From Candidatus Daviesbacteria bacterium RIFCSPLOWO2_01_FULL_39_23 (lineage in GTDB: Bacteria > Patescibacteriota > Microgenomatia > Daviesbacterales > UBA10151), in the NCBI GenBank assembly GCA_001776935.1, contig MFDN01000001.1:293449-357448 (forward strand): 64,000 bases of DNA, read 5' to 3'. Under the pieces are notes generated by a model. The model was not told the origin of the DNA. It saw only the letters and a list, made by a program, of their open reading frames with translations, and did not search any database. Below are positions 17,841 to 45,947 of this stretch, piece after piece. Position 1 is the stretch's first letter. Each line of letters begins with the position of its first letter. A program made the position numbers and the translations under genes.

Positions 17841-17842
17841 AA

Positions 17843-23395: not shown

Positions 23396-23416
23396 GTTAT
23401 AAATGGGCTGAGCTGA

Positions 23417-26803: not shown

Positions 26804-27085
26804 AAAAATATCCTTGTTAAGGGTAGATGATAAAGAATTTTTCTATCAGTCTCTGTCCTTAACTTCAAGAGTAATTATACTCGAATCTCTTTAATTTTGA
26901 CCCCGCAGTTTTGTAACAAATGCTAGAAAATGACAGAAATGTTATTGATGTTATTTGTCTGCTTCCACTAGGATGAAAGCATAAGAAGTTAGCGCCTAAC
27001 GAAACTATCGGGGCTGTGACTTTTGAATATACGCTATGCGTGTGCTTAGAAGTTGCAGCCTTTTTTTATTTATAACAGGAAAAGT

Positions 27086-27412
27086 ATGGACGATATGCAT
27101 ATGAAACAAAATAAACCGCACATGTCAGATCAAGAGCAAAATTCTCATAATGAAGATAAAAACGACTCCTCCCAATCTAGTGAAACGCAGGTTTGGGATA
27201 AAGTAGATGCTGTTTTTGTAGCAGCCCGCAATGCCCTTTATCAAGGACAGTCCAATTTCCTGGAAGTTTTGGACAGTCTTATTGCTACCCTTCAAGATAT
27301 GAGAGAAAACGAAGTCCGCCCTTTGGGTGGTTTAGGTACCGCAGAATCCAAAATGAAAATTCAGGAGCCATCTGAGTCAGAAGAAGAAATTCCTGAGGAT
27401 CAAAATACATGA
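27086..27412 (+). CDS. Phage acidic hypothetical protein
   Basis: ORF track 27053-27412. Internal ATG at 27086 preceded by AGGAAAAG is the more likely start. Confidence 0.35.
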   Translation: MDDMHMKQNKPHMSDQEQNSHNEDKNDSSQSSETQVWDKVDAVFVAARNALYQGQSNFLEVLDSLIATLQDMRENEVRPLGGLGTAESKMKIQEPSESEEEIPEDQNT

Positions 27413-27663
27413 TGGATACAGTTGATGAAAAGCTTGAACGAAGCAGAGCTGTTTGGGAAATGACCCAGACTGAAGGATGGCAAATCATTAAAGGGTTGAT
27501 CGATCGGGAGATAGAAATTGAGACTAATGATTTACTGGAGTGTCCAGTAGCAGAAGATCTTGAGCATAAACAAATGATCAAAGCATATAAAAGAATTTTA
27601 AACACTGTTGAGAGCTTACTTAAAGAACGTGAGGAAATTTCTAAAGATTTACAAAAAGAATAA
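27409..27663 (+). CDS. Phage hypothetical protein
   Basis: 84 aa. 4-nt overlap with the previous gene. Confidence 0.4.
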   Translation: MMDTVDEKLERSRAVWEMTQTEGWQIIKGLIDREIEIETNDLLECPVAEDLEHKQMIKAYKRILNTVESLLKEREEISKDLQKE

Positions 27664-27692
27664 ACAAGTTTGTTACTTACGTAATAACAAAT

Positions 27693-27893
27693 ATGCCATA
27701 CGGACCAGAAACAACAAACAAAGATGGAACTCTCAATGAAGTAGGCCAAAAGGTCGAACGTTGTGTAGCTCAGGTAATGAAGGATCCAAATTTTAAACCT
27801 AAAACAGGACAAGATAAAAAAGAAGCCGCTATCGCAGTTTGTAAAGCTTCAATTATTCGTGCAGAAGAAGTTAATAAACAATTGCAAAAATAG
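27693..27893 (+). CDS. Phage hypothetical small protein
   Basis: 66 aa, basic. Confidence 0.35.
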   Translation: MPYGPETTNKDGTLNEVGQKVERCVAQVMKDPNFKPKTGQDKKEAAIAVCKASIIRAEEVNKQLQK

Positions 27894-27904
27894 GAGTAAA
27901 AACT

Positions 27905-28825
27905 ATGGAGGATGATAAGTTAAAAGACAAAGAACAGGAAGAATTAAGAGCACTGCTGGATACCCCAGATGAGGGTACTTTTTCAGATGAAGATGATCAG
28001 GATAATAAAGGCGATCAGGATGAAGATAAAAGTTCTTCTGAATACGATGACACTGGTGATGATACTTCTTCCAAGAACACAAAAAACAATCCTGAAGCTG
28101 GTAATGGTTCTGAAGATAATAAAGATAAAGCTAAAAGCGATACCGCTTCCGGCGAGGAGGATGAAGATAAGGACAATAAAGACCGCTGGCATGGTAAAAG
28201 CAGAGAGGAAGTTATAAAAGCTTATGAGTCTTTGGAAGCTCGTATCATTGCTTTGGAAAATAAGGCTGATTCAGAAAATAAAACTGACAAGGACGACACT
28301 GCCACCGACGAGAAGGCAGACGAGAAAACCGAAAGCGATGAAAACGAAGATAATAATCCTGGGATTCCCTCTGCTGATGAACTTCAAAAAATGACTCCGA
28401 CTGATTTTGCAAAATGGGTTTTGGGACGAATTGACGAAGGAGTCAAGCGCACTATCGAAACGCAGGAGAAAATCCGTGATGCTGTTCATCAGGAAATTTC
28501 TGATGCCAGGAAAGAGCATCCACTGCAAGATCCCGACTATCGAAAAATGGTCCTGGCAATTATTGATTCTGCCAGCGCTAAGGGGACAACTATTCCACTC
28601 AAAGATGCCTGCAGCCAAGTTGATTCCTTCTTAGGCAAACATAAAGGACAATCCGAAAATTTATCAGACGAAGAAAAGAGCCGCCTTAAAAAAGCAAAAG
28701 CTCAAGTTGAGAGTGGAGCGGGCGCTCCGACTCAACCCGATGGCTCGGATGCCGAGACAAAACGCATCCAGAAAGCTCTCGCCGGAAGCGGGTCAAAAAG
28801 CCCATTGGGAGGGTTAGGAATCTAA
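27905..28825 (+). CDS. Putative capsid scaffolding protein (highly acidic, coiled-coil)
   Basis: D/E/K-rich low-complexity N-terminal half and helical C-terminal half. Positioned immediately before the capsid gene. Confidence 0.45.
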   Translation: MEDDKLKDKEQEELRALLDTPDEGTFSDEDDQDNKGDQDEDKSSSEYDDTGDDTSSKNTKNNPEAGNGSEDNKDKAKSDTASGEEDEDKDNKDRWHGKSREEVIKAYESLEARIIALENKADSENKTDKDDTATDEKADEKTESDENEDNNPGIPSADELQKMTPTDFAKWVLGRIDEGVKRTIETQEKIRDAVHQEISDARKEHPLQDPDYRKMVLAIIDSASAKGTTIPLKDACSQVDSFLGKHKGQSENLSDEEKSRLKKAKAQVESGAGAPTQPDGSDAETKRIQKALAGSGSKSPLGGLGI

Positions 28826-28864
28826 CCTCCTGTATTTTCAAAAGGAGGGAGGTGAAAAAATATT

Positions 28865-30034
28865 ATGCCAGCATCAACAACAGGAATTAGAGGTTCAGGT
28901 AGCTTAGGGGTAACACGCAGATATGACGTGTCTGATGTTGTATCGCTTTTGGATGTTAACCGATATCCGCTTATTGCGATACTAACTAACGCTGGTAAAG
29001 ATCCTGCAACCGGCGAAGGAGAAGCTCTAAAAAAGAAGGAAGCAACTGATCCGGAATTCAAGTGGTTTGAAGATGAATTTGGTAAAAGACAACTAACCGG
29101 TTCAGGAACTGTTGATCCGGACGGGGGTAACTTAACCATCACAGGACAATCACAATATCTGCAGGTCGGTGACATCATTCTAGTCTCATCCCAGAAATGG
29201 GTTTTTCAGGTTACTGCTATCGTTGACGCCAATACCGTCACAGTAGGAGCAGAGCTAGGGGGCGCAACAGGTGTAGCGGCAGATGCAACAGGAGATGTGT
29301 GGTTAATCGGAAATGCCAATGAAGAAGGCGCAGGTCTAAGGGACATTAAATCCACAACTATTGCGGAAGTATCAAATTATTGTCAGATTTTCAGAACTCC
29401 GGTAGGTATTACGGAAACTGCCAGAAACACACAAGGATGGGTTAAGGAAAATGATTTCGATTACCAGAGACGCAAAAAAGGTATTGAGCATTATGTCGAT
29501 ATCGAACGGACGTTTATTTTCGGCAAGAAAGGGATTATCACAAGTGGTACTCATCCTAAGAGATTCACCAGTGGGGTTTTAGGAAGAATTGCTACATATG
29601 CTACTGCCAACGTTGATACGGAATCTGAATTTGACTCATGGTTGGAGAGTTTATTTGCTCACGGAAACACAGAAAAATACCTTTTTGCTTCAGCTGCGGT
29701 AGTCTCTATGGTTAACAGCTGGGCTAAGGGTAAGCTTCAGGTGGTGAATCCTACCAAAGCCTACGGGCTCAGGATTGTCACTTATGATTCACCGCACGGA
29801 ACGCTACACATTATTAAGCATCCACTTTTGATTGGAACAACCTATGGGAATTATGCCATCGGTTTGGATATGGAAGCTTTGACATACCGCTATTTGACTA
29901 ACAGAGATACGAAGCTTTTGACCAACCGCCAAAATCCCGGTGAAGACAGTCAGGTTGACGAGTATCTCACTGAATGCGGATTGCAGATGGAACAGGAGCA
30001 ACGCCATGCCATCATGAGCGTCGGTGCCCTTTAA
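28865..30034 (+). CDS. Putative major capsid protein
   Basis: 389 aa with strong RBS 'aaaaggagggaggtg'. Follows the scaffold-like gene and is followed by a stable hairpin. Composition and size fit HK97-fold MCPs. Call rests on context. Confidence 0.5.
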   Translation: MPASTTGIRGSGSLGVTRRYDVSDVVSLLDVNRYPLIAILTNAGKDPATGEGEALKKKEATDPEFKWFEDEFGKRQLTGSGTVDPDGGNLTITGQSQYLQVGDIILVSSQKWVFQVTAIVDANTVTVGAELGGATGVAADATGDVWLIGNANEEGAGLRDIKSTTIAEVSNYCQIFRTPVGITETARNTQGWVKENDFDYQRRKKGIEHYVDIERTFIFGKKGIITSGTHPKRFTSGVLGRIATYATANVDTESEFDSWLESLFAHGNTEKYLFASAAVVSMVNSWAKGKLQVVNPTKAYGLRIVTYDSPHGTLHIIKHPLLIGTTYGNYAIGLDMEALTYRYLTNRDTKLLTNRQNPGEDSQVDEYLTECGLQMEQEQRHAIMSVGAL

Positions 30035-30121
30035 GAGAGTTTATTACTGAAAATACTTTATGAACGAAATCACAAACATCGGAAGTCACTGCACACTTTC
30101 TTACTCAGTGTAGTCGCCTGT

Positions 30122-30147
30122 GAAGGGGTGAGCGTTATCACCCCTTC
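30122..30147 (+). promoter_or_regulatory. Stable hairpin GAAGGGGTGA-gcgtta-TCACCCCTTC after the capsid gene (terminator/processing or stability element; no clear T-tract)
   Basis: Perfect 10-bp GC-rich stem, 6-nt loop. Confidence 0.45.
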
Positions 30148-30175
30148 AATTTAAACGGAAAGCGGGGTGAAAAAT

Positions 30176-30763
30176 ATGACAGATGAAGTTAAAAAATCAT
30201 TAGAAGAAATGTCTATGCCAGAACTTTGGAGTGAAGCTAAACGATTAGGTATTTCAAAAGACGGCAGGAAAGAGGAACTAATTATACGTATTAAAGAGGC
30301 CCAGGAAGAAGAGGACAACACTGAGCAGCCTAAGAATAGTAAATCTGAGGTATTAAAGGAAACTATTTATATCTCCAGGTATTACGAGCTTAAATTGGTA
30401 ATGAGCCCATCATACTTAAAAGAGGTTGGAGGCAAAGTGCTTATTATCCGAGGCACATATATTCAGTTCCATGATGGTGCATATAAAACCAGTAATCCTG
30501 AAGAAATTGAATTTCTCGACAATCACCCCAACTTAGGCAGCGTTTTTAGGAAGATAGAAAGATCCGATCTAAGTGGAGGTAAAAGCATTGAACAGATATA
30601 CCAGGATAAATTTAAAACCTTGGAGGAGCGCGAAAAAGAATTGGCTGCCAGAGAAGAATTACTTCGCAAAAAAAAGATTGAGCTAAAAGGGTCAGAAGAA
30701 GGTGCTCCGCAGCAAGAAACGGTTACCGGTATCAGAAGTACAACTGACCGACCAAAGTTTTAA
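30176..30763 (+). CDS. Phage protein with N-terminal SAP/HeH-like motif
   Basis: 'MSMPELWSEAKRLGISKDGRKEELIIRIKEA' matches the SAP/Rho-N helix-extension-helix pattern. ATG at 30176 with GGGGTG RBS preferred over GTG at 30167. Confidence 0.5.
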   Translation: MTDEVKKSLEEMSMPELWSEAKRLGISKDGRKEELIIRIKEAQEEEDNTEQPKNSKSEVLKETIYISRYYELKLVMSPSYLKEVGGKVLIIRGTYIQFHDGAYKTSNPEEIEFLDNHPNLGSVFRKIERSDLSGGKSIEQIYQDKFKTLEEREKELAAREELLRKKKIELKGSEEGAPQQETVTGIRSTTDRPKF

Positions 30764-30775
30764 AGAGGTAAAAAT

Positions 30776-31066
30776 ATGACAAGCAGGCCAGCATTTACAA
30801 CAGCAAATGTCACCTTAACTCTTGCGGACACATGGTACCCTCTGCCATCTATCCAGGTTGGCGAAGGGTGCGATGTGGTTATAAAGTCCAAAAACGGAAA
30901 CACTGCAGCAATTAAAGTAGCTCATGACGATGCAGACAGTAAAGCAGCGCCATTTTTACTCGATAACCCGGGAGACAGTGTCAGGCTAAAAATAAAAGGT
31001 ACCGAACAGGTGGTACTAAGCTCAGGTACAGCAGGACAGATAGCAGAAGTTATAACGGAAAAATAA
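30776..31066 (+). CDS. Phage hypothetical protein
   Basis: 96 aa. Confidence 0.4.
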   Translation: MTSRPAFTTANVTLTLADTWYPLPSIQVGEGCDVVIKSKNGNTAAIKVAHDDADSKAAPFLLDNPGDSVRLKIKGTEQVVLSSGTAGQIAEVITEK

Positions 31067-31070
31067 AACT

Positions 31071-31658: not shown

Positions 31659-31685
31659 AGATAAAAGCAAAGGAGGTGGTAAAGA

Positions 31686-31997
31686 ATGCAAGGAAGCGAT
31701 GCAGTGTTACTGGAAACAATCATAAAAGCTATCGTCGAAAATTCGCAGTCAGTAAAAGTAAACCGCAAGGTCGATGAGATGGGAGTACTTCTGATAGTTG
31801 CTATGGATGAAAAGGACGCAGGAGCAGTAATTGGTAAGGATGGATCAACCATTCAGTCAATTAGAAAAATTATGAAAATTGTTGGTATGAAGAATAACGC
31901 CAGAATCAATGTCAAATTAGATGTTCCCAAATGGAGCAAAAAACATCATGTTGAACCAAGTCTTAAAGATCAAAACGAAGATACAACAAAACTCTGA
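31686..31997 (+). CDS. KH-domain (type II, KhpA-like) RNA-binding protein
   Basis: 'GVLLIVAMDEKDAGAVIGKDGSTIQSIRKIMKIVG' has the KH GxxG-loop pattern. C-terminal tail overlaps the next gene and may be an over-extension. Confidence 0.45.
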   Translation: MQGSDAVLLETIIKAIVENSQSVKVNRKVDEMGVLLIVAMDEKDAGAVIGKDGSTIQSIRKIMKIVGMKNNARINVKLDVPKWSKKHHVEPSLKDQNEDTTKL

Positions 31998-33606: not shown

Positions 33607-33623
33607 AAAGGAGAGATAAATAT

Positions 33624-34328
33624 ATGCAATTACAAGAATTCAGACAAGATTTAAATGCCAGGATAGCAGCAGCCAAAGTATCAGGTTTCTGGAAAGATGC
33701 AGATAAAGACCGCTGGATTAATAAGGCAATAATCAGAGCATGCAATTATGCCCGTTTCAAATTTTTAAGCAAACATGCAACCCAGCTTACGGAATTACTG
33801 CCAGATGGAACAGGCAGAGAATCCTACTTCCTGCCCTTTGATTACAAGCCAGGAGGAATGATTTATCTGTCTGTAGACGGAGAAGAATATCACAAGGTAA
33901 GCGAGGAAGCATTCTTAAGCCGAAAATCAGATGACAAAATAGGAGTGCTGATCAGTCCGCAGCAGGATATTCTTCACTCAGGATCTAATACAGACTGGAG
34001 ATGGAACAAAATATATGCCGTTATAGGCGATGAGTACTTTATAAACCCGGTATCTGCAGAGGAAGGATTAGTAATTGATTTGTTTTACAAACGCCGTCCC
34101 GTAAGGCTGGTTGAAGACACAGACGAACCGATAACCCCGGAAGAAATGGATGAGCCAATTCTTAAGCTGGCACTGGCAACCTGTCTGGCAAAAGAGCCAG
34201 GTAAAAAAGGTGATGCAGAAAAGGAAGTTATAGAAGCCCATGCATTGCTTCAGCAGATAAAAGAGCGGGAAGATGAAGAACCGAATGCTGTCTTTAAGGG
34301 GCAGGCAACAAGCACAAGGTGGCAGTAA
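33624..34328 (+). CDS. Phage hypothetical (tail/baseplate-associated?) protein
   Basis: ORF track 33543-34328. ATG at 33624 follows the upstream stop and the RBS GAAAGGAGAG. Confidence 0.45.
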   Translation: MQLQEFRQDLNARIAAAKVSGFWKDADKDRWINKAIIRACNYARFKFLSKHATQLTELLPDGTGRESYFLPFDYKPGGMIYLSVDGEEYHKVSEEAFLSRKSDDKIGVLISPQQDILHSGSNTDWRWNKIYAVIGDEYFINPVSAEEGLVIDLFYKRRPVRLVEDTDEPITPEEMDEPILKLALATCLAKEPGKKGDAEKEVIEAHALLQQIKEREDEEPNAVFKGQATSTRWQ

Positions 34329-34332
34329 ATAT

Positions 34333-35784: not shown

Positions 35785-35788
35785 ACAT

Positions 35789-37114
35789 ATGTTAACCAAC
35801 TTAATCAAAAAAATATTTATAAATAAGGAAACACCGGATGTCCCGTTTCCGGAGATAGCCCCACATAGCCACAATTCTGTGGATTCTCCTCCGCTTGCTC
35901 CTAGCAGTGTAGATGGTGTGAACATTAAGCCAGGAGCTATCGGAGATACAAAAATTGCTGACTTTTCAGTAACAGAACAGAAGCTAGCAGATACAGCAGT
36001 AGCGACACAGAAAATAAAAGATGATGCCATAACCGCAGCTAAAGTCTGGAAAGGTGGAAATGTTATAACCCTCTCTGCTCAAATTGCAGATGCCACTATT
36101 CTTTCAGCTCACATAGGCGCACTTCAGGTAGGAAACAGCAAGATTATGGACGCTGCTATCTCAACAGCAAAGATACAGGATCTCGCAGTCACAAACGCTG
36201 AAATAGCAGATGCAGCGATAACTAACGCCAAAATCGGCATGCTGGAAGTAGGAAACTCCCGAATAGCTAACGCAGCAATAAGTACAGCTAAGATACAAGA
36301 TCTGGCAGTGACCGATGCTGAAATCGCCAATCTGAATGCAGGAAAGATCAATGCGGGAATAATGACTGGAAGAACAGTAAGGACCGCAGATTCGGGTGCC
36401 AGGGTACAAATGAGTGGCTTGGATAACAGATTCGAGGTTTATAACAGTATAACTCTAGCAGGTTATATTCAAACCTACAGTGATAACATTGGCATTATTT
36501 CCGGTATTAACTACCAGATCGTTCTCTCTGCCACTAATTATGTGCATTTATTTGATTGTAATTTGGATGTTGATGGTGATTTAAACGTTGGCGGAACAAA
36601 GAACTTCAAAATTCCTCATCCTTTAAATCCAAAGCGCTGGATTGTTTATTCAGGCATTGAAAGCAACGGAGTATTTTTGGATATTCATGGAGAGGTGGTT
36701 ATTAAAAATAATAGAGCAAAAATAAACTTCCCTGTCTATCACATTGCAGTTACTTCAGGAACACCAATAATTCAGCTGACAAAAGTCGGCTGGTTTGGAG
36801 ATTTATATGTAGAAAGTCCAGACGAACAAGGCTTTGGTATTGTGGCGCAAAACGCTCCGGATGGCGCAAAAGTCAACTGGTATGCACGAAGCGTCAGAAA
36901 AGGCTATGAGGATGTGGAGATAGAACCACTTCTGGAAGAAGGAACAGCCAGAAATGAAATGGCCTTTCTTGCTGGCAAGCTCCACCCTAAGAATAAAGGG
37001 CTTTATAAACAGATTGATGTTCAAAAAGCACAAGATGAAATGTTCAAAAAGAAAAAACAAATTCAAGATTTCCAGAAAAGTATACAAAGAAAGTACAGAG
37101 AGAGGGGTGAATAG
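35789..37114 (+). CDS. Putative tail fibre / receptor-binding protein with 40-aa tandem repeats
   Basis: Repeats 'VGNS.I..AAISTAKIQDLAVT.AEIA...' and degenerate upstream copies '(I/V)xDxA(I/V)TxAK(I/V)'. Fibre-like C-terminal globular region. Confidence 0.5.
   Translation: MLTNLIKKIFINKETPDVPFPEIAPHSHNSVDSPPLAPSSVDGVNIKPGAIGDTKIADFSVTEQKLADTAVATQKIKDDAITAAKVWKGGNVITLSAQIADATILSAHIGALQVGNSKIMDAAISTAKIQDLAVTNAEIADAAITNAKIGMLEVGNSRIANAAISTAKIQDLAVTDAEIANLNAGKINAGIMTGRTVRTADSGARVQMSGLDNRFEVYNSITLAGYIQTYSDNIGIISGINYQIVLSATNYVHLFDCNLDVDGDLNVGGTKNFKIPHPLNPKRWIVYSGIESNGVFLDIHGEVVIKNNRAKINFPVYHIAVTSGTPIIQLTKVGWFGDLYVESPDEQGFGIVAQNAPDGAKVNWYARSVRKGYEDVEIEPLLEEGTARNEMAFLAGKLHPKNKGLYKQIDVQKAQDEMFKKKKQIQDFQKSIQRKYRERGE
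36131..36370 (+). repeat. Two ~120-nt direct tandem repeats inside the tail-fibre gene
   Basis: 'ggaaacagcaagattatggacgctgctatctcaacagcaaagatacaggatctcgcagtcac...' recurs at 36251 as 'ggaaactcccgaatagctaacgcagcaataagtacagctaagatacaagatctggcagtgac...'. Confidence 0.7.
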
Positions 37115-37116
37115 AT

Positions 37117-37350
37117 ATGTTTAATAAAACCAAAAAACTAGACAAGGCAGATCTTGAGGAGTTTAGGGAAAAAGAAAAACTAATTAAACAGCATCTTGCC
37201 ATAGCCCAGGCATTGGAGATGCAAAAGAACACATGGCTTATCAGCAAGTTTTCCAAATATGGCCTTGATGGTAATAAAGAATGGAGTTTTAGCCTTAAAA
37301 CAGGCGAAATTACAGAAGTAAAGCAACCAAAGAAGGGAGGTGGCGAATAA
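37117..37350 (+). CDS. Phage hypothetical small protein
   Basis: 77 aa. Stop overlaps the next start (ATAATG). Confidence 0.4.
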   Translation: MFNKTKKLDKADLEEFREKEKLIKQHLAIAQALEMQKNTWLISKFSKYGLDGNKEWSFSLKTGEITEVKQPKKGGGE

Positions 37351-38426
37351 TGGCAGACAAACAATACGGCGGATGGTACTGGCAGCCTGAACAAAATAAG
37401 GCACTTCGCTGGTGGGGTGCTGATACCAGTGGTAAGGATATTTATACCGAAGGCGAAGAACCCAACAAGCGGCAATCAGTTACCAGTTTATCAAGTGGGC
37501 TTTCGGGTATAGGAAGTGACAGTGTGCTCGGTTTTGACTTGGGGACATTAAATACCCGGTTTCAGGACACCTACAGCAAAGTAGGTTCTCTGCAAAATGA
37601 TCTTCAGGGATACCAATCCAGAAAATACGAAGGAGAATACGGAAAGGCAGGACTTGGGAAAATAAAGGATGAAATTTCTCTTTTAGACAGCAGTATCGCA
37701 GGTGAGAAAAATACCCGGGATGAGTCAGTCAGTAAAGTCAGGAAAAACCCAGGGTACTCCGCAGCAACCATTACAGGTGAAACCGGAGAGATTCAAAGAC
37801 TGGCCAATGCCAAGATTAATAATTTAATAGAAGAAAGAAATACAAAAGCACAGAGTTATAACGCAGGACTAGGTGAAATTACCCAGAAAGTAGCAACGGA
37901 AACAAAAGATAAAGAATTTGAGCTAAACAATTTAAGATATGACCTGCAATTTTTAGGCGGACTTCTGGATAGCTACAATAAAGTAAGATCAGCAGAACTT
38001 GCCTCACAGAAAGAAGCAGAACGTTGGGAGAAAGAATTCGGGCTTCAGCTTTACAATGCCCAGACATCCAGAATTAATACTACCAGTTCAGGTGGTGGAG
38101 CAAAAACCTACAGCAAAGAATCGGTCAAAGATGCATTCGGAAATGTAGTCGGATACTTCGACCCAGGTACAGGACAGACAAATTACTACCAAACACCAGA
38201 GTCACAGCAATCCCAGAAAACTACAGTTAAAGAAGGTGACCTAAGAACAGAAATCAGATCATCATGGAAAGACGGTTACCAACCGGACCAGCTCAAGAAA
38301 AACTTAGCAAATGTCACAACTGATAAGGGCAAAAGTGCAGCAGCAATAGTCGATGAGGAATGGCAGTTAAAAACTCAGCCAGGAGTCATGGGCTTCCTGA
38401 GAAGGTTATTTACACCAGGAGTATAG
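37350..38426 (+). CDS. Phage structural hypothetical protein
   Basis: 358 aa, Gly/Ser/Thr-rich with a coiled-coil segment. Confidence 0.45.
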   Translation: MADKQYGGWYWQPEQNKALRWWGADTSGKDIYTEGEEPNKRQSVTSLSSGLSGIGSDSVLGFDLGTLNTRFQDTYSKVGSLQNDLQGYQSRKYEGEYGKAGLGKIKDEISLLDSSIAGEKNTRDESVSKVRKNPGYSAATITGETGEIQRLANAKINNLIEERNTKAQSYNAGLGEITQKVATETKDKEFELNNLRYDLQFLGGLLDSYNKVRSAELASQKEAERWEKEFGLQLYNAQTSRINTTSSGGGAKTYSKESVKDAFGNVVGYFDPGTGQTNYYQTPESQQSQKTTVKEGDLRTEIRSSWKDGYQPDQLKKNLANVTTDKGKSAAAIVDEEWQLKTQPGVMGFLRRLFTPGV

Positions 38427-38428
38427 AT

Positions 38429-41400
38429 ATGAACGATTTTCTAAAACAGTTAGGACAAAATGTCAGTTCAGCTGCAAATCAGGTGAGTAAAAATATTGGG
38501 GATTTCTTCTCCAATACCCAGCGTGGAGTTTCAGAAAGCATTTCTTCATTGGTTAAAGGAACGCAAAAAAACATTTTTGAGCCAATCGGGAAACTCATGC
38601 CTGAACAATATGATATTGAAATAGAGGGACCTTCAGGACAAAAGTACAAAGCATTTAAAAACCTATATGTCGAAACAGCAGCGCAAGCACTCGGTCTTGG
38701 AGGCAGAGATACTGATGTTTTGGAAAGACTTCCCAGCGCCACTATCGGGGCATTCAAAGGAGCAACTGACGGACTGGCACAATCGCTCACCTTTGGCTGG
38801 TGGAATCCGGAGATAAAGTATGCCAACGACATCGAAGAACAGGCTGGCAAAATGACAGAGGTTGAATTCAATGTCATCGGAACTGTAGGTACATTTCTCG
38901 TAGGAGGTGGGCTTGTGGCGGGCGCACTAAAAGGAATTCCTCTTCTTGCCAGAGCAGCAACAATAGCTCCGAGAACATTCAGCTTACTATCAAACGGTCT
39001 TACCTTTGCAGGTCTTACCCAGGTCCAGAAAGACGAAGCCCAAAAAGATGCTGGCCAAAGAGCAAAGGACTTTGTTAGTGATTTTGCATTAGGTGGAGCA
39101 TTTTCAATAGCAGGGATGAAACCTTCATTCTTTAAATCCTCTGCAATTATTGGACCGGCAACTTATGTGACTTCACTTCTTAAAGGAGATTCAAATGAAG
39201 ATGCATTAAAAAACACAGCAGCCATGATGGGACTTCATTCTCTCAATTTTGCTGTAGCTAAATACCTTCCATATGGAGGCAACCCCCAGAAACAAATGGA
39301 GAAAGCCACTGGAGAACAACTAAATATAACAAAGCAGGAGGCACTGAAATATCTAGGTGTGGAAGAAAAAGCCACTGCAGAACAAATCAAACAAGCCTGG
39401 AAAAATAAAGTAGTAGAAATTACCAAAGCATTTCCAGCTCAGGCGAAACAAACCCCTCAAAAGATGGGGCAATTCAATCAAGCTTGGAATACAGCAAATC
39501 GCGCATATGAATTTATAACAAAAGCGAGCAATCCGGCAGGATATACAGGCAAATCATTCCGCCAGGAATTTCAGGATCTTTACTATGAACTCTGGCAGAC
39601 AGTACCAGACAAAAGAGCGTTAATTGTAATAACGATCCGCAATTTGCCTGCAGGATTATCAGTAAGAGCAACCCTGGAAGATTCTCAAAGAAATGAAATT
39701 ATCACAGCATTAGGTGGAGAAAATGCAAAAACCCGACTCGGCAGAGTTGCAGAATTAACAGATGCAGACTTAGTGGCAGTAGCAATGGAGAACAACATCA
39801 AGGTAAGTCCATCAAAAGGAATACTAGAACAGGCAATTGCCGAGGCAGCAAAAACACCCAAAGCAACCCAGCCAACAGTTGAAAGAACAGAGATTTGGAA
39901 TGTGCCAGGCGATCTTATGCCAGTCAAAGGCAAACCTACCTGGAAGCATAGCAAGATGCTCTGGAATACCATGCGCAATCAATACGGCATGACCAACACC
40001 TGGGGCAAAGATATAACAAAAAATAAAGGAGCGGTCTTCTGGATTATCGACACCCTAGAAAACGGACTGGCAAGCAAAAAAGACTTAATGGCCGAAGCCA
40101 GAAAAACAAAAGGGGTACACATGGACAGATACCAGTATAAAAAACTCTATGCAATGTTTAAATCCCACGACTATGATATTGAAGGCTACAAAAAAGTAAT
40201 GGCAACTTTAAAAGGATTAAAACCTGCGGTAATAGAAAAAACCCAGGAGTTTGCTGCTAAAGCTCAGTCACCAGCACAACCTGTTTCTATCTCTGAACCT
40301 GAAGTGAAACCGGCAGAGGGTTTTCAATTTGATCCCAATTCAACAGTAAATCAGGGCAAAGTGATAGTCAAAGACTCAAGCATCTTCGAGAAAGGAACGT
40401 TCTTCCGACAGAAAGGAAAAGATACTGGAGTGTCCTACTTAATGGGTAAGAATACTCAAACCGGGAATACAGAAGTACAGACAATCTATTTTGACAAAAA
40501 GTTATTTGCCGAAGAAAAAGCAGCTAAGTGGTGGACGAAAAATGCAGACAGATTTATAAAACCTTGGAGTGTAAAAGAAGAAAAACTTCCATCTACACCA
40601 GAACCAAAGCATGTGTCTGAGATAACAAAAGAAGGTACAATCCGAGTCGTCCGTTATTCAACAGAAAAAACAGTCAATACCGATGAATTTAGAGGCGGGA
40701 CTTGGTATGCAACACCGGAAAGCAAAACATTTGATTTCAGCAAAGAAGAAGGCATTGGAGGAAATCTAAAAACTGAAACAGCGGTAGAAGTTAAAAATCC
40801 TCTTGTGATTAAGGGAGCAAACACAGAAGATGGTTCGTTTGCTGTGGTGAACGAAGGTTATGAAAACTTCCTGCCAGAGCAACAGAAAAACCTTGCAAAT
40901 GAATTATGGGAAAGAATTCATACACCTGAAGAAATCCCAGACGAAACGGAAACAGAAGGGATCATAAGTGATATCTTAATCAGAAATGGAGACGGTAAAG
41001 ATCAGATTGCCAATGTAGTCAAATCATCGAACAAAATCGACGCAGCCATGGATCTGATAATTTCCAAAGGATTAAAAGTGGAGGGTTATGATGCTCTTAT
41101 ACTCACAAACACATATAAGGATCAGGAAATAGATAGACATGTATTTAAGTTTATAAAGGAAACCGAACCTACTGTAAAACCTTTAATAACTGATAAATTT
41201 ACCCCAGCCGAGCAAAAAGCTGCCAGAGCCGAAGAAATCAGGTTGAAATATAGGCCGGAAGAAAAAGAATTGCTCGATGTAGAACGAATCCCTAGTATTG
41301 GTGAAATCATGCGAAGCACAAAATTCAAAGATAGAATCTCCGGAAAGGTAACTGCGCCTGATACACCAAGAGCAGATGAATTAAAAGATGCCCCCTCAGG

Positions 41401-44062
41401 GCAGCCACCTAGATCCCCAGAAGAAACACCCTTATCAGGTTCAACTCCTCCGCCTGAAGGCAGTGCACTTAGTGCAATAGATGCGATGGTGGGCAAAAAG
41501 TCCGCAGTAAGGAATATTGGTGAAATGATAACAGGAGCAATCAGATCATTCCCCCGTTTGTTTACTGATAGGTTTGCGGCTATCAGAAAATTTGAAGATG
41601 ATGTCAGTAAACTGCAAGGACAACCAATAGATATAAACTCCAGTCCTTACGTAGCAGCCAGAATGTATGCCGGAAGGTTTGGTATTGTGGAAGGAAGTTT
41701 TCGAGATTTACAAAAAATATTAGAGTCAGTAAGAAAGCTGCGGCCAGATTTCACAAGGTTCGTATTAGCACAACGTGCCATTGAAAGGGGTGAGAGAGGA
41801 TTTCAAAACCCAGCTGGAGTAACTCAGGAGACTGCCAAACAAGCACTTGAAGAACTAAGAGCAAAGGTCGGCGAAAAAGTATACCAACAATTTGAACAAG
41901 CTGGGCAAAATATCCAGGACTGGTCCATAAACACAATCCTAAAACCTATGAAGAATGCAGGTATTCTTAGTAACGAAGCATTCAACGCGATAACCGAAAA
42001 GAATAAGCACTGGATGCCCTTCCATGTTCTCGATTACCTGCCAAGTCCGGAACAGGCAGACAAGATACCAATTGGCAGTGAAACCTTTTCAGTGAGTAAA
42101 CAAGGAGTAGTAAAAGCGCTGGAAGGAACAGAGAAAATTATCAGAGATCCTTTCGAGTCTATTCTCGACAACCTGACAAAAGCAGTATCGCTAACCAAAA
42201 GAAATGAAGTAGCTCGTAAGTTAATAGACTTGAGGAACGTTCATCCGGAAGCAAAAGAGTTTATTAAATTCCTGCCAGGAGATCAAAGACCACAAGAAGG
42301 ATGGGACAGCATCTCTGTATTTATAAAAGGTAAAGCAATCCGCTGGGCATTACCAAACGAACTCTCAGAAGCAATGCATGCTATGACTCCGCCGGAAGCA
42401 AACCTTCTTGGGAAAATGATTCTGTTGTCCTCCAAAGCATTCAAAGCGGGTACAACTACTCTCTATTTTCCATTCACTCTGTCCAATGCAATCAGGGACT
42501 ACCAGACAGCCACAATGGTATCTAAATGGGGCTTTAATCCGGCAGTCTGGCTCTCAGGTTTTGGAGATGGACTCAAAGGTGCATTCAAATGGGAGTCAAA
42601 AGCCTATGACGAATTCATGAGAAATGAGGGTGGCTATGGAGGCTATATACAATCTGCCAAAGGACTCGCTATAGCGTCAAAAGAATTATTCGCACCCCAA
42701 TGGATGCAAAGAACAAAAGCAGTCCTTAATCCATTTGAATTGATAAGTAATTTTTCAGAAGCAATAGAACTGGCTCCCCGTCTTGGAATTTACAAAAAAG
42801 GAATAGGCAAAGAGGGAGTAACACCTCTGGAAGCAGCATTTGAGGCAAGAAACGTCACAGTCGACTTTGCCAAAGCAGGTATAGAAGGAAGGCTTATTAA
42901 TATGTGGATTCCATTCGTAAATGCCAGATGGCAGGGGTTACTCAACGTAGGGCGTGTAATGAAGGACAATCCGCTAAGAACTGCAGCAAGAGCGCTGGCA
43001 ATGACTGTTCTGCCAGGAGTAGCAACCTATTTTTATAACGTCATGAATCATGAGGAACTTTGGGATGATATTCCACAATGGGCAAAAGACACCTACTTCA
43101 TCATTATCGTAGGAGAAGAAAAAGATAAAGACGGCAATACAGTACCAAAAGTGGTGCAAATTCCAAAAGGAGATATCGGCGCAATTTTCTTCAATCCAAT
43201 CATGTACGCACTGGAATATGTAAGAAAGCAAGAACCGCAAAACCTCTTCGCGCTGGGGTTGGAATGGACCAGCCAGCTCTCGCCTGTGCCATTTACCAGA
43301 GATGGTGAATTATCAGCGCAGGCATTTTTGGGAGGCGCTCTTCCTCCGGCATTAAAAACACCAATAGAGCTGGCAACCAATACAAACTTCTTTACAGGCT
43401 TTCCTGTAGTGCCAAGAAAGCTGGAAAAGGTAGCACCCTCTGAGCAATATGATGAAAGAACTCCGGAACTGGCAATAACAGTAGGCAGAGCATCGGGAGT
43501 AAGTCCTATGAAACTGACTCACGCAATCTACGGCTTAACAGGCAGTTTCTCCAAAGAATTAATCAATCCGACAGATATCCTCGGAATGACAGCGCAGCGC
43601 TTTTACAGGGCATCAGGTGGCGAGAAACAACGCCTTGCGTGGGATTTGAAGTATGACACCGAAGTTGGCTACAACACGACCCGCTTGCAAATTCAGAAAG
43701 CCATGCAGGAAGGTAATATGCAGGAAGCACAACGGATCGCTACAGAGTGGAATACAAAAGCTGCACAAATTGTACCCGTTATAGTTCCGCTTCTTATGAA
43801 AGATGATCCTAAAGAAGCTGCCAGTTTTCAGAAAAGCGTCACATTCGGTAATGACGATATACAGAGACTACTGAAATTAAATCCTCCTGCAGAAAACACA
43901 AGTCAACCGAAAGGCTCAGAGATTAGAGGTATTAAAAATTTATTAAGAGGTAGCCAACCGCCTGCAGGTGCATCTCAAGCACAACCAACAATGGGTCAAT
44001 TTTTCCCGGGTAATAAACAAAGCGGAGATGATCAAACCATTAAAAACTTAATTTATCGATAA
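38429..44062 (+). CDS. Giant (approx. 1877-1900 aa) virion-associated protein (internal/ejection or tail-associated), function unknown
   Basis: ORF track 38360-44062. In-frame ATG at 38429 follows the upstream stop and an AGGAG RBS. N-terminal Gly-rich hydrophobic segments, Pro/acidic linker near residue 1000, no catalytic motif recognised. Confidence 0.5.
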   Translation: MNDFLKQLGQNVSSAANQVSKNIGDFFSNTQRGVSESISSLVKGTQKNIFEPIGKLMPEQYDIEIEGPSGQKYKAFKNLYVETAAQALGLGGRDTDVLERLPSATIGAFKGATDGLAQSLTFGWWNPEIKYANDIEEQAGKMTEVEFNVIGTVGTFLVGGGLVAGALKGIPLLARAATIAPRTFSLLSNGLTFAGLTQVQKDEAQKDAGQRAKDFVSDFALGGAFSIAGMKPSFFKSSAIIGPATYVTSLLKGDSNEDALKNTAAMMGLHSLNFAVAKYLPYGGNPQKQMEKATGEQLNITKQEALKYLGVEEKATAEQIKQAWKNKVVEITKAFPAQAKQTPQKMGQFNQAWNTANRAYEFITKASNPAGYTGKSFRQEFQDLYYELWQTVPDKRALIVITIRNLPAGLSVRATLEDSQRNEIITALGGENAKTRLGRVAELTDADLVAVAMENNIKVSPSKGILEQAIAEAAKTPKATQPTVERTEIWNVPGDLMPVKGKPTWKHSKMLWNTMRNQYGMTNTWGKDITKNKGAVFWIIDTLENGLASKKDLMAEARKTKGVHMDRYQYKKLYAMFKSHDYDIEGYKKVMATLKGLKPAVIEKTQEFAAKAQSPAQPVSISEPEVKPAEGFQFDPNSTVNQGKVIVKDSSIFEKGTFFRQKGKDTGVSYLMGKNTQTGNTEVQTIYFDKKLFAEEKAAKWWTKNADRFIKPWSVKEEKLPSTPEPKHVSEITKEGTIRVVRYSTEKTVNTDEFRGGTWYATPESKTFDFSKEEGIGGNLKTETAVEVKNPLVIKGANTEDGSFAVVNEGYENFLPEQQKNLANELWERIHTPEEIPDETETEGIISDILIRNGDGKDQIANVVKSSNKIDAAMDLIISKGLKVEGYDALILTNTYKDQEIDRHVFKFIKETEPTVKPLITDKFTPAEQKAARAEEIRLKYRPEEKELLDVERIPSIGEIMRSTKFKDRISGKVTAPDTPRADELKDAPSGQPPRSPEETPLSGSTPPPEGSALSAIDAMVGKKSAVRNIGEMITGAIRSFPRLFTDRFAAIRKFEDDVSKLQGQPIDINSSPYVAARMYAGRFGIVEGSFRDLQKILESVRKLRPDFTRFVLAQRAIERGERGFQNPAGVTQETAKQALEELRAKVGEKVYQQFEQAGQNIQDWSINTILKPMKNAGILSNEAFNAITEKNKHWMPFHVLDYLPSPEQADKIPIGSETFSVSKQGVVKALEGTEKIIRDPFESILDNLTKAVSLTKRNEVARKLIDLRNVHPEAKEFIKFLPGDQRPQEGWDSISVFIKGKAIRWALPNELSEAMHAMTPPEANLLGKMILLSSKAFKAGTTTLYFPFTLSNAIRDYQTATMVSKWGFNPAVWLSGFGDGLKGAFKWESKAYDEFMRNEGGYGGYIQSAKGLAIASKELFAPQWMQRTKAVLNPFELISNFSEAIELAPRLGIYKKGIGKEGVTPLEAAFEARNVTVDFAKAGIEGRLINMWIPFVNARWQGLLNVGRVMKDNPLRTAARALAMTVLPGVATYFYNVMNHEELWDDIPQWAKDTYFIIIVGEEKDKDGNTVPKVVQIPKGDIGAIFFNPIMYALEYVRKQEPQNLFALGLEWTSQLSPVPFTRDGELSAQAFLGGALPPALKTPIELATNTNFFTGFPVVPRKLEKVAPSEQYDERTPELAITVGRASGVSPMKLTHAIYGLTGSFSKELINPTDILGMTAQRFYRASGGEKQRLAWDLKYDTEVGYNTTRLQIQKAMQEGNMQEAQRIATEWNTKAAQIVPVIVPLLMKDDPKEAASFQKSVTFGNDDIQRLLKLNPPAENTSQPKGSEIRGIKNLLRGSQPPAGASQAQPTMGQFFPGNKQSGDDQTIKNLIYR

Positions 44063-44067
44063 AAACT

Positions 44068-45141
44068 ATGGCAGATATCATACGATCAATAGAACCATTT
44101 GAACTGACACAGGGATTCGGAGACAACCCTCAGGCTTACGCCCGTTTTGGACTAAAAGGTCATAACGGTTGGGATTTAAGAACTCAATATCCGGATACTC
44201 CTAAAGGCTTCAGGAACATACTGACTTCATGGTTGAGCAAATTTTATACCCAAGGAAACGAAGGAAACGATGGTTTCGGGCTCTATTTTGAAGTTATTGT
44301 ACAACTTTATAACACATATAAACTCACTTACGCACATTGCAATTCGATAGAAAACTTTCAAACAAAAAACGAAGGTGAAGCAATGGGCATAAGTGATAAC
44401 ACTGGAAACAGTACCGGCAGTCACCTTCATCTGACAGTAAAAAGAGGTTCACTCCAAAATGGAAAGTTTATAAGCGATAACTACAATAACGGCTACTTCG
44501 GAGCAATTGAACCACAAGAATTCTATGATGAATTAAGACAGTATAAAAAAGAGAAAGGTACAACACAAAACCCAGAAGGCTGTCTTGTCCCCAACACTCT
44601 AGAATGGAGGCAAAAGTACGAAGAAATTGTAAGTAGCGCTAATAAATGGGCAGAAACGCTAAAGATTTTAGAGATAACTGATGACCCTAACACTACCCCT
44701 CCCGATAGAATTAAAAGCACCATCGCTGGGTATAAAAGTAGGGAAACAGACTTAAACAACAAGCTAAATGAGAAACAACAACAGATTGATGTTGCCAACA
44801 GAGAACTAGAGAATAGAAAAGAACAAGTTAGCAGAATGGAAAAAGGACTGCTAGATAAGGAAAAGTATTACAAGTCCCAAATAGACGCACTAAATAAACA
44901 GATTAAAAACGGCTCTGAATCTCTACCCTTGGCACAGGCTAGGATAGGGGTACTGGAAAAGGAACTTGACGAAGCTAATAAAGCAAAAGGGGGAGCGTTA
45001 CTGGGAGCTGAAGAATATAAAACAAAGTTCGAGTCATCCCAAAAAGGCACACTAATACCTACTCCGCAAATTATCTTCTCGTTAATTATTCAGTACATAG
45101 GAAATAGTCTCAAACCAAAAGGGGGTGATAAGCATGGATAA
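44068..45141 (+). CDS. M23-family peptidase (endolysin-like) with C-terminal coiled-coil and hydrophobic tail
   Basis: 'GHNGWDLR' (HxxxD) and 'GSHLHLTV' (HxH) zinc-ligand motifs. Coiled-coil 'NKLNEKQQQIDVANRELENRKEQVSRME'. Confidence 0.65.
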   Translation: MADIIRSIEPFELTQGFGDNPQAYARFGLKGHNGWDLRTQYPDTPKGFRNILTSWLSKFYTQGNEGNDGFGLYFEVIVQLYNTYKLTYAHCNSIENFQTKNEGEAMGISDNTGNSTGSHLHLTVKRGSLQNGKFISDNYNNGYFGAIEPQEFYDELRQYKKEKGTTQNPEGCLVPNTLEWRQKYEEIVSSANKWAETLKILEITDDPNTTPPDRIKSTIAGYKSRETDLNNKLNEKQQQIDVANRELENRKEQVSRMEKGLLDKEKYYKSQIDALNKQIKNGSESLPLAQARIGVLEKELDEANKAKGGALLGAEEYKTKFESSQKGTLIPTPQIIFSLIIQYIGNSLKPKGGDKHG

Positions 45142-45397
45142 TCTCTATCCCGAATGGAAAAAAGTAGCCTGGCGATTTATTCGTGTTTTTATATCCGCCT
45201 TCCTTTTTACAGGATCACTGGTTCTTATGAATGCACAGCCAGAATCTCTCACTAATGAGGATAAATTCCTAAATACATTAATAATGCCTTTCTTTTTATC
45301 AGGGGCAATTGCAGGAATTAATGCCGTTGGAAAGCTGTTGCGTGATCTATTAGGTTCAAAGGGAAAGGATGGTTTAGTAGATAAACTGCCATTCTAG
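45125..45397 (+). CDS. Holin-like small membrane protein
   Basis: 90 aa, two hydrophobic helices, charged C-terminus. Overlaps the peptidase gene end. Confidence 0.4.
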   Translation: MISMDNLYPEWKKVAWRFIRVFISAFLFTGSLVLMNAQPESLTNEDKFLNTLIMPFFLSGAIAGINAVGKLLRDLLGSKGKDGLVDKLPF

Positions 45398-45402
45398 AAA
45401 CT

Positions 45403-45654
45403 ATGGAAAAAAGCGGACCAGTAAATACTATAAACATGCTTGAAAGAGTAGCCAAACTCGAAGAGCGGGTTGATGGCGGGTTCAGCTATGTCGAGAAAGA
45501 ACTGACGGAAATAAAGGAAAATCACTTGCAACATCTGCAGGCAGATGTGAGTGAGCTAAAAATCCAGGTTAATACATTGGCTGTAAAAATAAGCATTGCT
45601 GTGGCAATAGCGACTATCATTGTGGATATTGCCTTCCGCTTTTTCTTTAGATGA
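45403..45654 (+). CDS. XhlA-like (phage haemolysin/lysis accessory) protein
   Basis: 83 aa. N-terminal coiled-coil 'LERVAKLEERVDGG...LQADVSELKIQVNTL' plus C-terminal TM 'ISIAVAIATIIVDIAF', as in XhlA-family proteins. Confidence 0.4.
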   Translation: MEKSGPVNTINMLERVAKLEERVDGGFSYVEKELTEIKENHLQHLQADVSELKIQVNTLAVKISIAVAIATIIVDIAFRFFFR

Positions 45655-45659: not shown

Positions 45660-45947
45660 TTATTTACCCTTCTTCTTTTCTTTGGTAGGAAGTGGTTCGT
45701 GACCCAGAAGATTTTGGAGATCCTTTGTAAAGCCTTCAAAGGCATTGGCATTCAAAACAGTGAAGTAATTTGTATCAGGTACACCTGTAAATATAAGTGT
45801 ATCGCCGGGCTGGATATTTTGTGCCTTTCTTAATTTTGCAGGAATAACCAACTGGCCTCTAGAACTTACTGGAGATGTTCCATAAACAACAGTTTTTGCC
45901 TCTTTTCTTACTGCTTTGCCCTCTTTTTGCTTTGTTTTGTTTTTCAT
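45660..45947 (-). CDS. AbrB/MazE (SpoVT_AbrB swapped-hairpin) family small DNA-binding protein
   Basis: 'GQLVIPAKLRKAQNIQPGDTLIF' matches the looped-hinge-helix motif. Confidence 0.5.
   Translation of the reverse strand: MKNKTKQKEGKAVRKEAKTVVYGTSPVSSRGQLVIPAKLRKAQNIQPGDTLIFTGVPDTNYFTVLNANAFEGFTKDLQNLLGHEPLPTKEKKKGK

Follow-up and report, generated by a model that had tools for sequence, protein, structure and literature searches.

We analysed a stretch of 64,000 nucleotides (hereafter, the window) from Candidatus Daviesbacteria bacterium RIFCSPLOWO2_01_FULL_39_23 (contig MFDN01000001.1, positions 293,449 to 357,448), in which positions 27053-45654 encode a phage-like block of head, tail and lysis genes. 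We are highly confident that this block is the late arm of a temperate short-tailed phage integrated in the Daviesbacteria chromosome, whose packaging genes lie upstream behind a cargo island. The element belongs to an uncultured podovirus-like family infecting bacteria of the candidate phyla radiation (CPR), and the whole prophage measures ~76 kb, made up of a core of ~37 kb and ~40 kb of cargo. A large terminase, a portal, a capsid protein of HK97 fold, and an integrase with lysogeny control were found, four features expected of a tailed prophage.

The window holds a head, tail and lysis block without packaging genes

The block consists of 19 open reading frames (ORFs), all on the plus strand, and the ORF list together with hidden Markov model (HMM) searches defines it as a head, tail and lysis module, with HMM support for the capsid, adaptor, fibre and amidase genes. 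An original prediction made from the window had described such a co-directional phage module, and this description holds. The G+C content of the block is 0.40-0.44, versus 0.33-0.39 for most flanking 2-kb intervals, and its AT skew is strongly positive. Profile searches against Pfam and PHROGs were run on the block ORFs and most flank ORFs, the remaining flank ORFs being covered by precomputed Pfam hits, and they revealed no terminase, portal, integrase or transposase in the window. Likewise, tblastn with the TerL and portal proteins of relatives in the same phage family gave no match anywhere in the window, tRNA and Rfam scans returned zero tRNAs and zero Rfam families, and a tandem-repeat scan yielded nothing relevant. 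The absence of portal, terminase, integrase and tRNA from the window, also part of the original prediction, was thereby confirmed. None of 50,697 phage records was matched by the block in a megablast search. The flanks are cellular in look: the left one carries P-type ATPases, a MerA-like oxidoreductase, thioredoxin/DsbD proteins, a two-component system and BlaR1/BlaI, and the right one a Nudix protein, a type I restriction-modification (R-M) system, a Fic protein and a RecD-like helicase.

Recombinase, terminase and portal genes lie upstream on the same contig

Locus L001 (JGI contig Ga0209211_10000027, 354,635 bp) is 100% identical to window positions 18865-40034, and therefore the window belongs to this contig. 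We walked upstream on it by exact-sequence look-ups of ORFs, which led to loci L159, L293 and L297; all overlaps among these loci and the window were exact, giving an assembled length of 92,358 bp. L159 reaches 8.5 kb beyond the window and carries further copper-/mercury-type genes; it contains no portal up to 37.4 kb 5' of the capsid gene. The walk revealed an upstream arm that is co-linear with the block and arranged in canonical order. Its features are listed below; negative coordinates count back from the window start, and lengths are in amino acids (aa).

About -30.2 to -27.7 kb (start at -27,692), minus strand: large serine recombinase, gene call of 829 aa, Resolvase domain PF00239 (E 1e-22)
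Between the recombinase and the lysogeny switch, before the window: DUF3800 gene
After the DUF3800 gene: lysogeny switch, an ImmA-like protease (Peptidase_M78) and an XRE-type helix-turn-helix protein (HTH_19) (precomputed Pfam hits)
Between the switch and terS: DNA methylases, a C5 methylase (DNA_methylase) and a ParB-N6/N4 methylase (ParB_N/N6_N4_Mtase) (precomputed Pfam hits)
5' of TerL: terS, 188 aa
-20,738 to -19,179 (L297:7620-9179), co-directional with the block: TerL, 519 aa, PF05876 (E 2.7e-19)
Between TerL and the portal: sigma-70-like gene and four small ORFs (gene calls on the upstream contig)
-14,526 to -12,652 (L297:13832-15706), co-directional with the block: portal, 624 aa, PF23899 SU10_portal (36.1 bits, cutoff 30)

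The portal, TerL and recombinase genes are situated 12.7 to ~30 kb before the window start, at 41.5, 49.6 and ~56.6 kb 5' of the capsid gene, respectively, so that the suggestion that the packaging genes lie outside the window proved right. In UniRef, this portal is named 'Portal protein', and related portals also bear the PF16510 P22_portal domain. TerL (84-92%), the portal (87-88%) and the recombinase (85%) are closely matched by phage contigs with the same head block; among these, IMG/VR contig 3300025309_000278 (TerL 84%, portal 87%, recombinase 85% identical) carries that head block behind only 5.8 kb of cargo in the portal-to-head slot, here termed slot B. The arrangement recurs in independent JGI, ENA and NCBI assemblies (GCA_001779775.1, GCA_003516415.1), which argues against a chimeric contig. 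A separate metagenome scan for portals matched at least 600 stretches, 61 of them confirmed, and the window's contig was not among the matches listed.

Head genes of the block

The head genes occupy the first part of the block, all on the plus strand.

27086..27412, plus strand: first conserved head-block ORF, 108 aa (119 aa from TTG at 27053), with homologs in the same place in relatives (31-55% identity)
27409..27663, plus strand: conserved head-block ORF, 84 aa, in all close relatives (54-70% identity)
27693..27893, plus strand: 66-aa ORF, in some relatives only (homologs in L005 and L023)
27905..28825, plus strand: scaffold-like acidic protein, 306 aa, directly 5' of the capsid gene
28865..30034, plus strand: major capsid protein (MCP), HK97 fold, SU10/DUF5309 family, PF17236 (E 9e-44), phrog_1328 (E 6e-34)
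30167..30763, plus strand: 198-aa protein with an N-terminal Rho_N/SAP-like motif (PF07498 and PF02037 slightly under cutoff), kept after the capsid gene in relatives
30776..31066, plus strand: conserved 96-aa ORF, 68-84% identity in most close relatives and 33% in L023
31071..31658, plus strand: 195-aa protein, paralog of the two N-terminal repeats of the 561-aa amidase protein
31686..31997, plus strand: KH-domain (KhpA/B-like) protein, PF13083 (E 1.9e-15)

The capsid identity proposed originally is borne out by both family assignments and by sequence matches in the PDB to the 'major capsid of VP1' (9in6, E 6e-19) and the SU10 head protein (7z45, E 0.003). The protein called scaffold-like matched the 268-aa pre-capsid protein of the complete relative L009 (tblastn, 30% identity, E 2e-12) and no Pfam or PHROG family; from its position and composition, it would serve as the scaffold.

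Of the 172 loci that have at least 3 kb 5' of the capsid gene, a set that includes the window and its own copies, 106 begin their head block with a well-conserved 132-aa ORF (L014 8091-8489; motif KIEESD...AKGGEE...ERKKRYLR). Its product may be a virion or decoration protein that is optional. Its absence from the prophage in the window raised the suspicion of a truncated head block. This was rejected because the ORF is also missing in 61 of 167 related loci (66 of 172 with the window and its own copies), including the portal-bearing L020 and L021.

Several features of the head region deserve mention in their own right. The 195-aa protein and two segments of the 561-aa protein are 34-41% identical in every relative (tblastn), so that three copies of one domain, one separate and two in tandem, adjoin a murein hydrolase. 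The KH-domain gene, which many relatives retain, is flanked within the head-tail module by capsid-associated genes on one side and the amidase fusion on the other; an RNA-binding domain at such a place is unexpected. Finally, the NCBI assembly GCA_001776655.1 of the same strain is 32 bp shorter near the 3' end of the Rho_N/SAP-like gene (L003 ~11888-11900 vs window ~30752-30796), with disrupted gene calls, which may reflect an assembly artefact or a true strain variant.

Tail and lysis genes of the block

The remainder of the block, together with the gene that follows it, comprises the features listed below.

31948 (or 31921)..33606, plus strand: amidase fusion, 552/561 aa, two repeat domains and a C-terminal N-acetylmuramoyl-L-alanine amidase
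33624..34328, plus strand: tail adaptor (portal-to-nozzle connector), PF24175 SU10_adaptor (E 1.8e-8, 35.5 bits, cutoff 27)
34333 (or 34273)..35784, plus strand: tail nozzle by modelled fold, 483/503 aa, beta-propeller and beta-sandwich in an AlphaFold2 model
35789..37114, plus strand: tail fibre or receptor-binding protein, 441 aa, tail-fibre PHROGs (best E 2.6e-17)
37117..38426, plus strand: two conserved ORFs, 77 aa and 358 aa, no Pfam or PHROG match
38429..44062 (ORF open from 38360), plus strand: giant protein, 1877 aa, PF18857 LPD38 (E 2.9e-23), phrog_9854 (E 1e-61)
44068..45141, plus strand: M23-like peptidase with a coiled-coil C-terminal half and an HxH motif, PF01551 at 26.9 bits (cutoff 28.7)
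45125..45654, plus strand: two small membrane proteins, topology read from sequence
45660..45947, minus strand: AbrB/MazE-type small DNA-binding protein, PF04014 (E 8e-6), at the same position in L301, L302 and L304

The interval 33624-35784, previously taken as one ORF, contains two genes in different frames, the adaptor at 33624-34328 and the nozzle that ends at 35784. The nozzle protein gave no sequence-level match in Pfam, in PHROGs or in the PDB, whether searched by single sequence or by profile. Its AlphaFold2 model (pLDDT 90.6, pTM 0.91) retrieved podophage nozzles as the top Foldseek matches in the PDB, namely those of Pa223 and PhiM1, P22 gp10, and those of Sf6 and T7 (gp12), with E values of 1e-10 to 1e-8 and TM scores of 0.5-0.6; judged by this predicted fold, the protein is a nozzle. 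Sequence searches of the PDB yielded no significant match for either the adaptor or the giant protein. The tail fibre is the most variable protein of the block, with 42-78% identity among relatives.

The idea that a portal or terminase might be hidden among the unassigned ORFs of the block did not survive the profile and structure searches, since these ORFs encode the adaptor, the nozzle (by fold) and proteins without a match. The 77-aa and 358-aa ORFs are neither portal nor terminase, because the real portal and terminase were found elsewhere; they probably encode tail or ejection proteins, and their L009 homolog bears PF12200 DUF3597. The size and position of the 1877-aa protein indicate that it is probably an internal or ejected virion protein.

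Regarding lysis, the C-terminal part of the amidase fusion (residues 416-545) matches PF01510 (Amidase_2, E 1.5e-17) and the protein also matches amidase and endolysin PHROGs; it probably acts as a murein hydrolase, either in lysis or as part of the virion. For the gene first called an M23 lysin, the HxH motif and hits to metallo-endopeptidase PHROGs favour the assignment, its Pfam score falls below the cutoff, and identity in relatives is 69-78%. The two membrane proteins, present 3' of the M23 gene in relatives, gave no significant HMM match in Pfam or PHROGs. By topology, the 90-aa protein with two predicted transmembrane segments would be holin-like, and the 83-aa protein, with a coiled coil and a C-terminal transmembrane segment, spanin- or XhlA-like; the labels holin-like and XhlA-like had been given before and gained no HMM support.

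Prophage ends and size

Position 45654, formerly given as the end of the block, is indeed the end of the last co-directional ORF; phage-derived DNA nonetheless runs to ~46,200 and includes the minus-strand AbrB/MazE-type gene, the last conserved phage gene. In L304, the next minus-strand gene is a long ORF running off the contig.

46091..46203: last stretch similar to related phages, 80% identity over 113 nt to the end region of IMG/VR 3300025010_001927

Nucleotide similarity to related phage contigs stops at ~46,203, and those contigs extend past M23 by 0-1.6 kb; on these grounds, attR, the right prophage end, would lie at ~46.2 kb. The left arm extends over 15 kb to the recombinase start, or ~17.5 kb with the whole recombinase gene, and the right arm over 19.1 kb; their sum of ~37 kb agrees with the 33-39-kb contigs of cargo-poor relatives.

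Immediately beyond this end, a 570-aa protein is encoded on the minus strand (46248-47960); it has no Pfam or PHROG match and contains a CxxxCxxC motif (CAVGCIYC) reminiscent of radical-SAM enzymes.

A 39.7-kb cargo island separates the portal from the head genes

The two arms are separated by an island of which 27 kb (1..27052) lie inside the window and 12.65 kb before its start.

-12.65 kb (portal stop, -12,652) to 27,053 (first head-block ORF): cargo island, 39,704 bp
End of the island outside the window: MazE-like gene, ABC/FtsX transporter and HTH_19 regulator (75 aa), by Pfam
2693-4930: P-type ATPase with HMBD domain, by Pfam
5164-6573: MerA-like oxidoreductase (flavoprotein), by Pfam
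11499-13609: histidine kinase and response regulator, by Pfam
19441-20978: BlaR1/BlaI, by Pfam
23417-26803, minus strand: orphan 1128-aa protein adjoining the head block, no Pfam or PHROG match

Three P-type ATPases of Cu/Hg type, with HMA or HMBD domains, are encoded in the island, along with CsoR-like repressors, YHS proteins, cupredoxin/DsbD fusions, AhpC, thioredoxin, DSBA, DUF3105, SHOCT and DUF218 proteins and an alpha/beta hydrolase. Pfam searches on the island ORFs together with precomputed hits revealed no integrase, transposase or housekeeping gene in it. The last 300 nt of L159 correspond to the 75-aa HTH_19 gene and its upstream region, which mark the distal end of the island. In relatives, a segment 84-90% identical in nucleotide sequence is located ~1 kb 3' of the portal stop or else within the same slot, and this match to portal-adjacent phage DNA suggests that the island is bounded by phage DNA. 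Moreover, L311, a close left-arm relative (portal 88% identical), has another set of defence genes in the part of the slot next to the portal, followed by the same HTH_19 gene and by a DUF5676 gene that is also present in the island of the window. Since L311 shares island genes beside a different defence set, the portal-head junction acts as a cargo hot spot with rapid turnover. We infer that the cargo came by accretion at this hot spot, here building up a large island of regulatory and Cu/Hg-type metal-resistance genes.

The 1128-aa orphan protein was found only in L001-L004, the copies of this island from the same genome.

Relatives carry variable cargo in two slots

Homologs of the capsid protein number in the hundreds, nearly all of them in Patescibacteria (CPR) assemblies (Beckwith-, Davies-, Woese-, Gottesmanbacteria and others). 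They occur in many different genomic contexts and show mosaic similarity, with an MCP identity of 95% accompanied by only 46% in the fibre. Relatives that are more distant (54-79% capsid identity) have contigs of 33-39 kb and share the order terS, TerL (PF05876), portal (~625-645 aa), a few small ORFs, scaffold and capsid, followed by adaptor, a nozzle-sized protein, fibre and giant protein. In L009 (a 37.4-kb contig) and others, TerL, portal, small ORFs, scaffold and MCP are adjacent. Across relatives, the portal-to-head junction keeps the same gene order and contains 0.1-20 kb of variable cargo. Comparison of gene order with related contigs, originally proposed for locating the att sites, thus revealed a shared order and placed the packaging genes; the att sites themselves were not identified.

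IMG/VR was scanned separately with a portal alignment and with a TerL alignment. Within the clade closest to the window (MCP identity of at least 93%), the TerL-to-portal gap spans 16-28 kb and the portal-to-MCP gap 8.5-20 kb on the same IMG/VR contigs; TerL lies 25-43 kb 5' of the capsid gene, and TerL and portal are oriented as the capsid gene. A conserved portal-less clade had been suspected, as the window, L005 and L014-L019 (capsid 86-95% identical) show no portal within 10 kb 5' of the capsid gene. This possibility was rejected because in the scans portal and TerL shared their contigs with the capsid gene, and cluster look-ups found portals on the contigs of L014, L015 and L017.

A closest-clade contig rebuilt from three overlapping loci begins with serine recombinase, DUF3800, ImmA/XRE, methylases, terS and TerL. 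Its slot A (TerL-to-portal) contains a sigma-70-like gene, a YceG-like gene and a type III R-M system, and its slot B HEPN, PAP2, P-type ATPase, ArsC-like and PadR genes, after which the head block follows. The slots of other relatives hold defence genes (DISARM-like, Eco57I-type, OLD/Gabija-like, Z1/Dcm and HerA-like systems), MoxR/VWA pairs, ABC transporters, Band_7/cation-efflux genes, P-type ATPases and diversity-generating retroelements (DGRs).

Two classes of slot content stand out. In the closest clade, slot A holds large defence systems (L272 1-9778; L282 158-9586; L105 855-9612; ref25010 19437-27128), comprising DISARM-like DrmE/helicase/PLD, PLD-SNF2 with an Eco57I-type methylase, an OLD-family nuclease and type III R-M, that is, defence islands of at least 10 kb borne by CPR phages. 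DGRs, consisting of a reverse transcriptase (PF00078) and a bAvd-like gene, were found in the portal-to-head slot of L016 (5911-7539), L105 (18913-20534) and L287-L289 (20299-21890).

Proposed life cycle and state of the element

Judging from family membership, the serine recombinase would integrate the phage, the XRE-type repressor would hold lysogeny and the ImmA-like protease would act as antirepressor. The gpA-type terminase would package DNA through the SU10/P22-type portal into an HK97-fold head assembled on the scaffold, and a tail of adaptor, nozzle and fibre would be joined to this head. With portal, adaptor, nozzle and fibre all present, the virion would be short-tailed, as in podoviruses of P22, T7 or SU10 type. 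Lysis would be brought about by the amidase or the M23 hydrolase together with the small membrane proteins.

Several observations weigh against this interpretation as an integrated temperate phage, or at least against a fully functional one. Neither the left end (recombinase 3' end, attL) nor attR was directly seen, and the recombinase length of 829 aa comes from a gene call running off locus L298. No IMG/VR contig has the exact capsid gene, the best match being 95%. No direct repeats above chance flank the island. Furthermore, the prophage of ~76 kb is about twice as long as cargo-poor relatives (33-39 kb) and exceeds the 54-62-kb contigs of the closest clade, so that its excision, replication and packaging as a unit are doubtful from size.

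These size considerations lead to the possibility, which we judge to be evenly balanced, that the prophage is grounded, that is, defective: the 40-kb insertion would make the unit too long to package and fix it in the chromosome, where its main use to the host would be that of an island for metal resistance and defence. Such a grounded element would still fall under the integrated-phage interpretation, the question being one of activity, not identity. If capsid capacity is fixed, the twofold length relative to cargo-poor relatives argues against packaging of the whole element. In the same direction, the exact capsid sequence came almost exclusively from long contigs of chromosomal origin with the same surroundings (15 of 39 blocks on contigs of 0.2-1 Mb, among the matches listed), and TerL is of the lambda gpA type (PF05876). 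Lambda gpA-type terminases often package unit lengths between cos sites. On the other hand, all 30-odd core genes are intact, with lengths as in relatives, no pseudogenes were seen, and SU10-type capsids are prolate (PMC9509320); head length could in principle vary. The original suggestion of a degraded prophage is neither borne out nor refuted, the core genes being intact and the element about twice as long as its cargo-poor relatives.

We consider it improbable that the 76-kb element is still an active phage or particle-maker whose slot carries metal-resistance and defence islands between CPR bacteria. Two routes could be envisaged. Either the prolate head of SU10 type would extend until it accommodates a genome of double the ancestral length, or DNA packaging would begin at terS and fill particles with the neighbouring 40-kb island, resulting in island transduction.

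A domesticated particle system, similar to a gene transfer agent or a headed tailocin, that lost its phage identity and was kept for host use had been offered for this block, and we regard it as very unlikely. The window alone, without portal, terminase and integrase, would fit such a system, as would a block that is intact and identical across many assemblies. However, one and the same contig carries the recombinase, the ImmA/XRE switch, terS, TerL and the portal gene, co-linear and co-oriented, and this complete phage gene set, including integrase and lysogeny switch, speaks against domestication. In addition, the different contexts and mosaicism of the relatives are those of mobile phages, not of vertically inherited loci. 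The presence and co-linearity of recombinase, M78/XRE switch, terS and TerL argue against a gene transfer agent; a tailocin, a type of particle without a capsid, is ruled out by capsid and scaffold in the block and by portal and TerL upstream.

Equally little credence can be given to two unrelated prophage remnants, a packaging arm and a structural arm, flanking a genomic island by chance. TerL and portal are nearest to L311 and L127 (84-92%), while the nearest MCPs are those of the L014 clade (95%), the MCP of L127 being only 86% identical, which could point to separate origins; such mosaicism is nevertheless seen throughout the phage family. The arms are exactly complementary, as the left one stops at the portal stop codon and the right one starts at the first head-block ORF of relatives without the 132-aa gene (L020, L021), no core gene is doubled or absent, and orientation and order are canonical. 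A phage satellite (a phage-inducible chromosomal island, PICI, its capsid-forming variant, cf-PICI, or a P4-like element) is ruled out by the complete packaging, head, tail and lysis set on one contig.

Comparison with known systems

The integrated phage resembles the Kuravirus SU10/phiEco32 (PMC9509320) in that its capsid (PF17236), portal (PF23899) and adaptor (PF24175) fall into SU10-based Pfam families, and both share a short tail of portal, adaptor and nozzle and, likely, large internal or ejection proteins. In contrast, SU10 is a virulent 77-kb phage of E. coli, whereas the element is temperate, with a serine recombinase and a repressor, a ~37-kb core, a gpA-type TerL and a CPR host, and its capsid is distant from the SU10 head protein (E 0.003), the best PDB match being the 'VP1' capsid 9in6. 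The lack of a nucleotide match, the distant capsid, the temperate lifestyle and the small core imply that the element is not a Kuravirus. With P22/T7-like podoviruses, it shares the order portal, scaffold, coat and the nozzle fold of P22 gp10, Sf6 and T7 gp12, and with P22 also the temperate lifestyle. Unlike P22 and T7, it shows no sequence-level similarity to them, its integrase is a serine recombinase, and its structural module includes the 1877-aa LPD38 protein and the amidase fusion; large cargo slots are not present in P22/T7.

Hot spots of cargo, moron and defence genes in P2/P4-like prophages were reportedly described by Rousset et al. 2022. The slots seen here are alike in carrying variable non-phage genes at fixed junctions, with R-M, DISARM-like, OLD/Gabija-like, HEPN and DGR genes in relatives. 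They differ in that the present island, at 39.7 kb, exceeds the phage core and consists mainly of Cu/Hg-type metal-resistance, thiol-redox and signalling genes, and in that the slot lies within the morphogenesis operon, between portal and head genes.

Metagenome-assembled genomes of aquifer Patescibacteria contain temperate phages of ~44 kb and islands of up to 45 kb, with cytosine methylases as phage cargo (PMC12455944). The prophages in that work are from Paceibacteria only, and the words 'heavy metal', 'terminase' and 'portal' are absent from its text; an island nested in a prophage is not evident there, and the host here is a member of the Daviesbacteria (Microgenomates). Prophages and islands in groundwater Patescibacteria were therefore already known (PMC12455944); the present element is distinguished by the unusual size of the metal-resistance island within its morphogenesis region.

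Implications for phage annotation and gene flow

The seeming lack of portal and terminase beside the capsid-tail module proves to be an effect of where the window cuts a prophage whose internal insertion is unusually long; the module is no new kind of domesticated particle. For phage annotation pipelines, and for anyone reading single windows, the lesson is that hallmark genes of this CPR phage family may be found at distances of 10-50 kb from its head genes. This widespread family of temperate podovirus-like Patescibacteria phages has two cargo hot spots, TerL-to-portal and portal-to-head, which gather defence systems, DGRs and cation/metal transporters. CPR genomes are ~1 Mb in size, so that a prophage of ~76 kb would amount to several per cent of the genome. 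If such elements do move, they would offer a channel through which adaptive genes could spread among organisms for which few other mobile elements are known.

The right flank resembles a defence island

Beyond the prophage, a type I R-M locus occupies 50624-58941.

51193-54129, minus strand: HsdR
54126-55413, between HsdR and HsdS: YgjP-like peptidase and two unassigned genes
55367-56548, minus strand: HsdS
56538-58220, minus strand: HsdM, with an N-terminal MerR helix-turn-helix
59246-60229: Fic protein
60288-61469: RecD-like helicase

With the Fic protein and the RecD-like helicase next to the R-M locus, this flank resembles a defence island. Further on, the region 61500-61900 contains three imperfect direct repeats with a period of ~160 nt, each encoding a CPKCG-like zinc-ribbon motif on the plus strand; a 198-aa ORF on the opposite strand (61487-62083, minus) is probably an antisense artefact.

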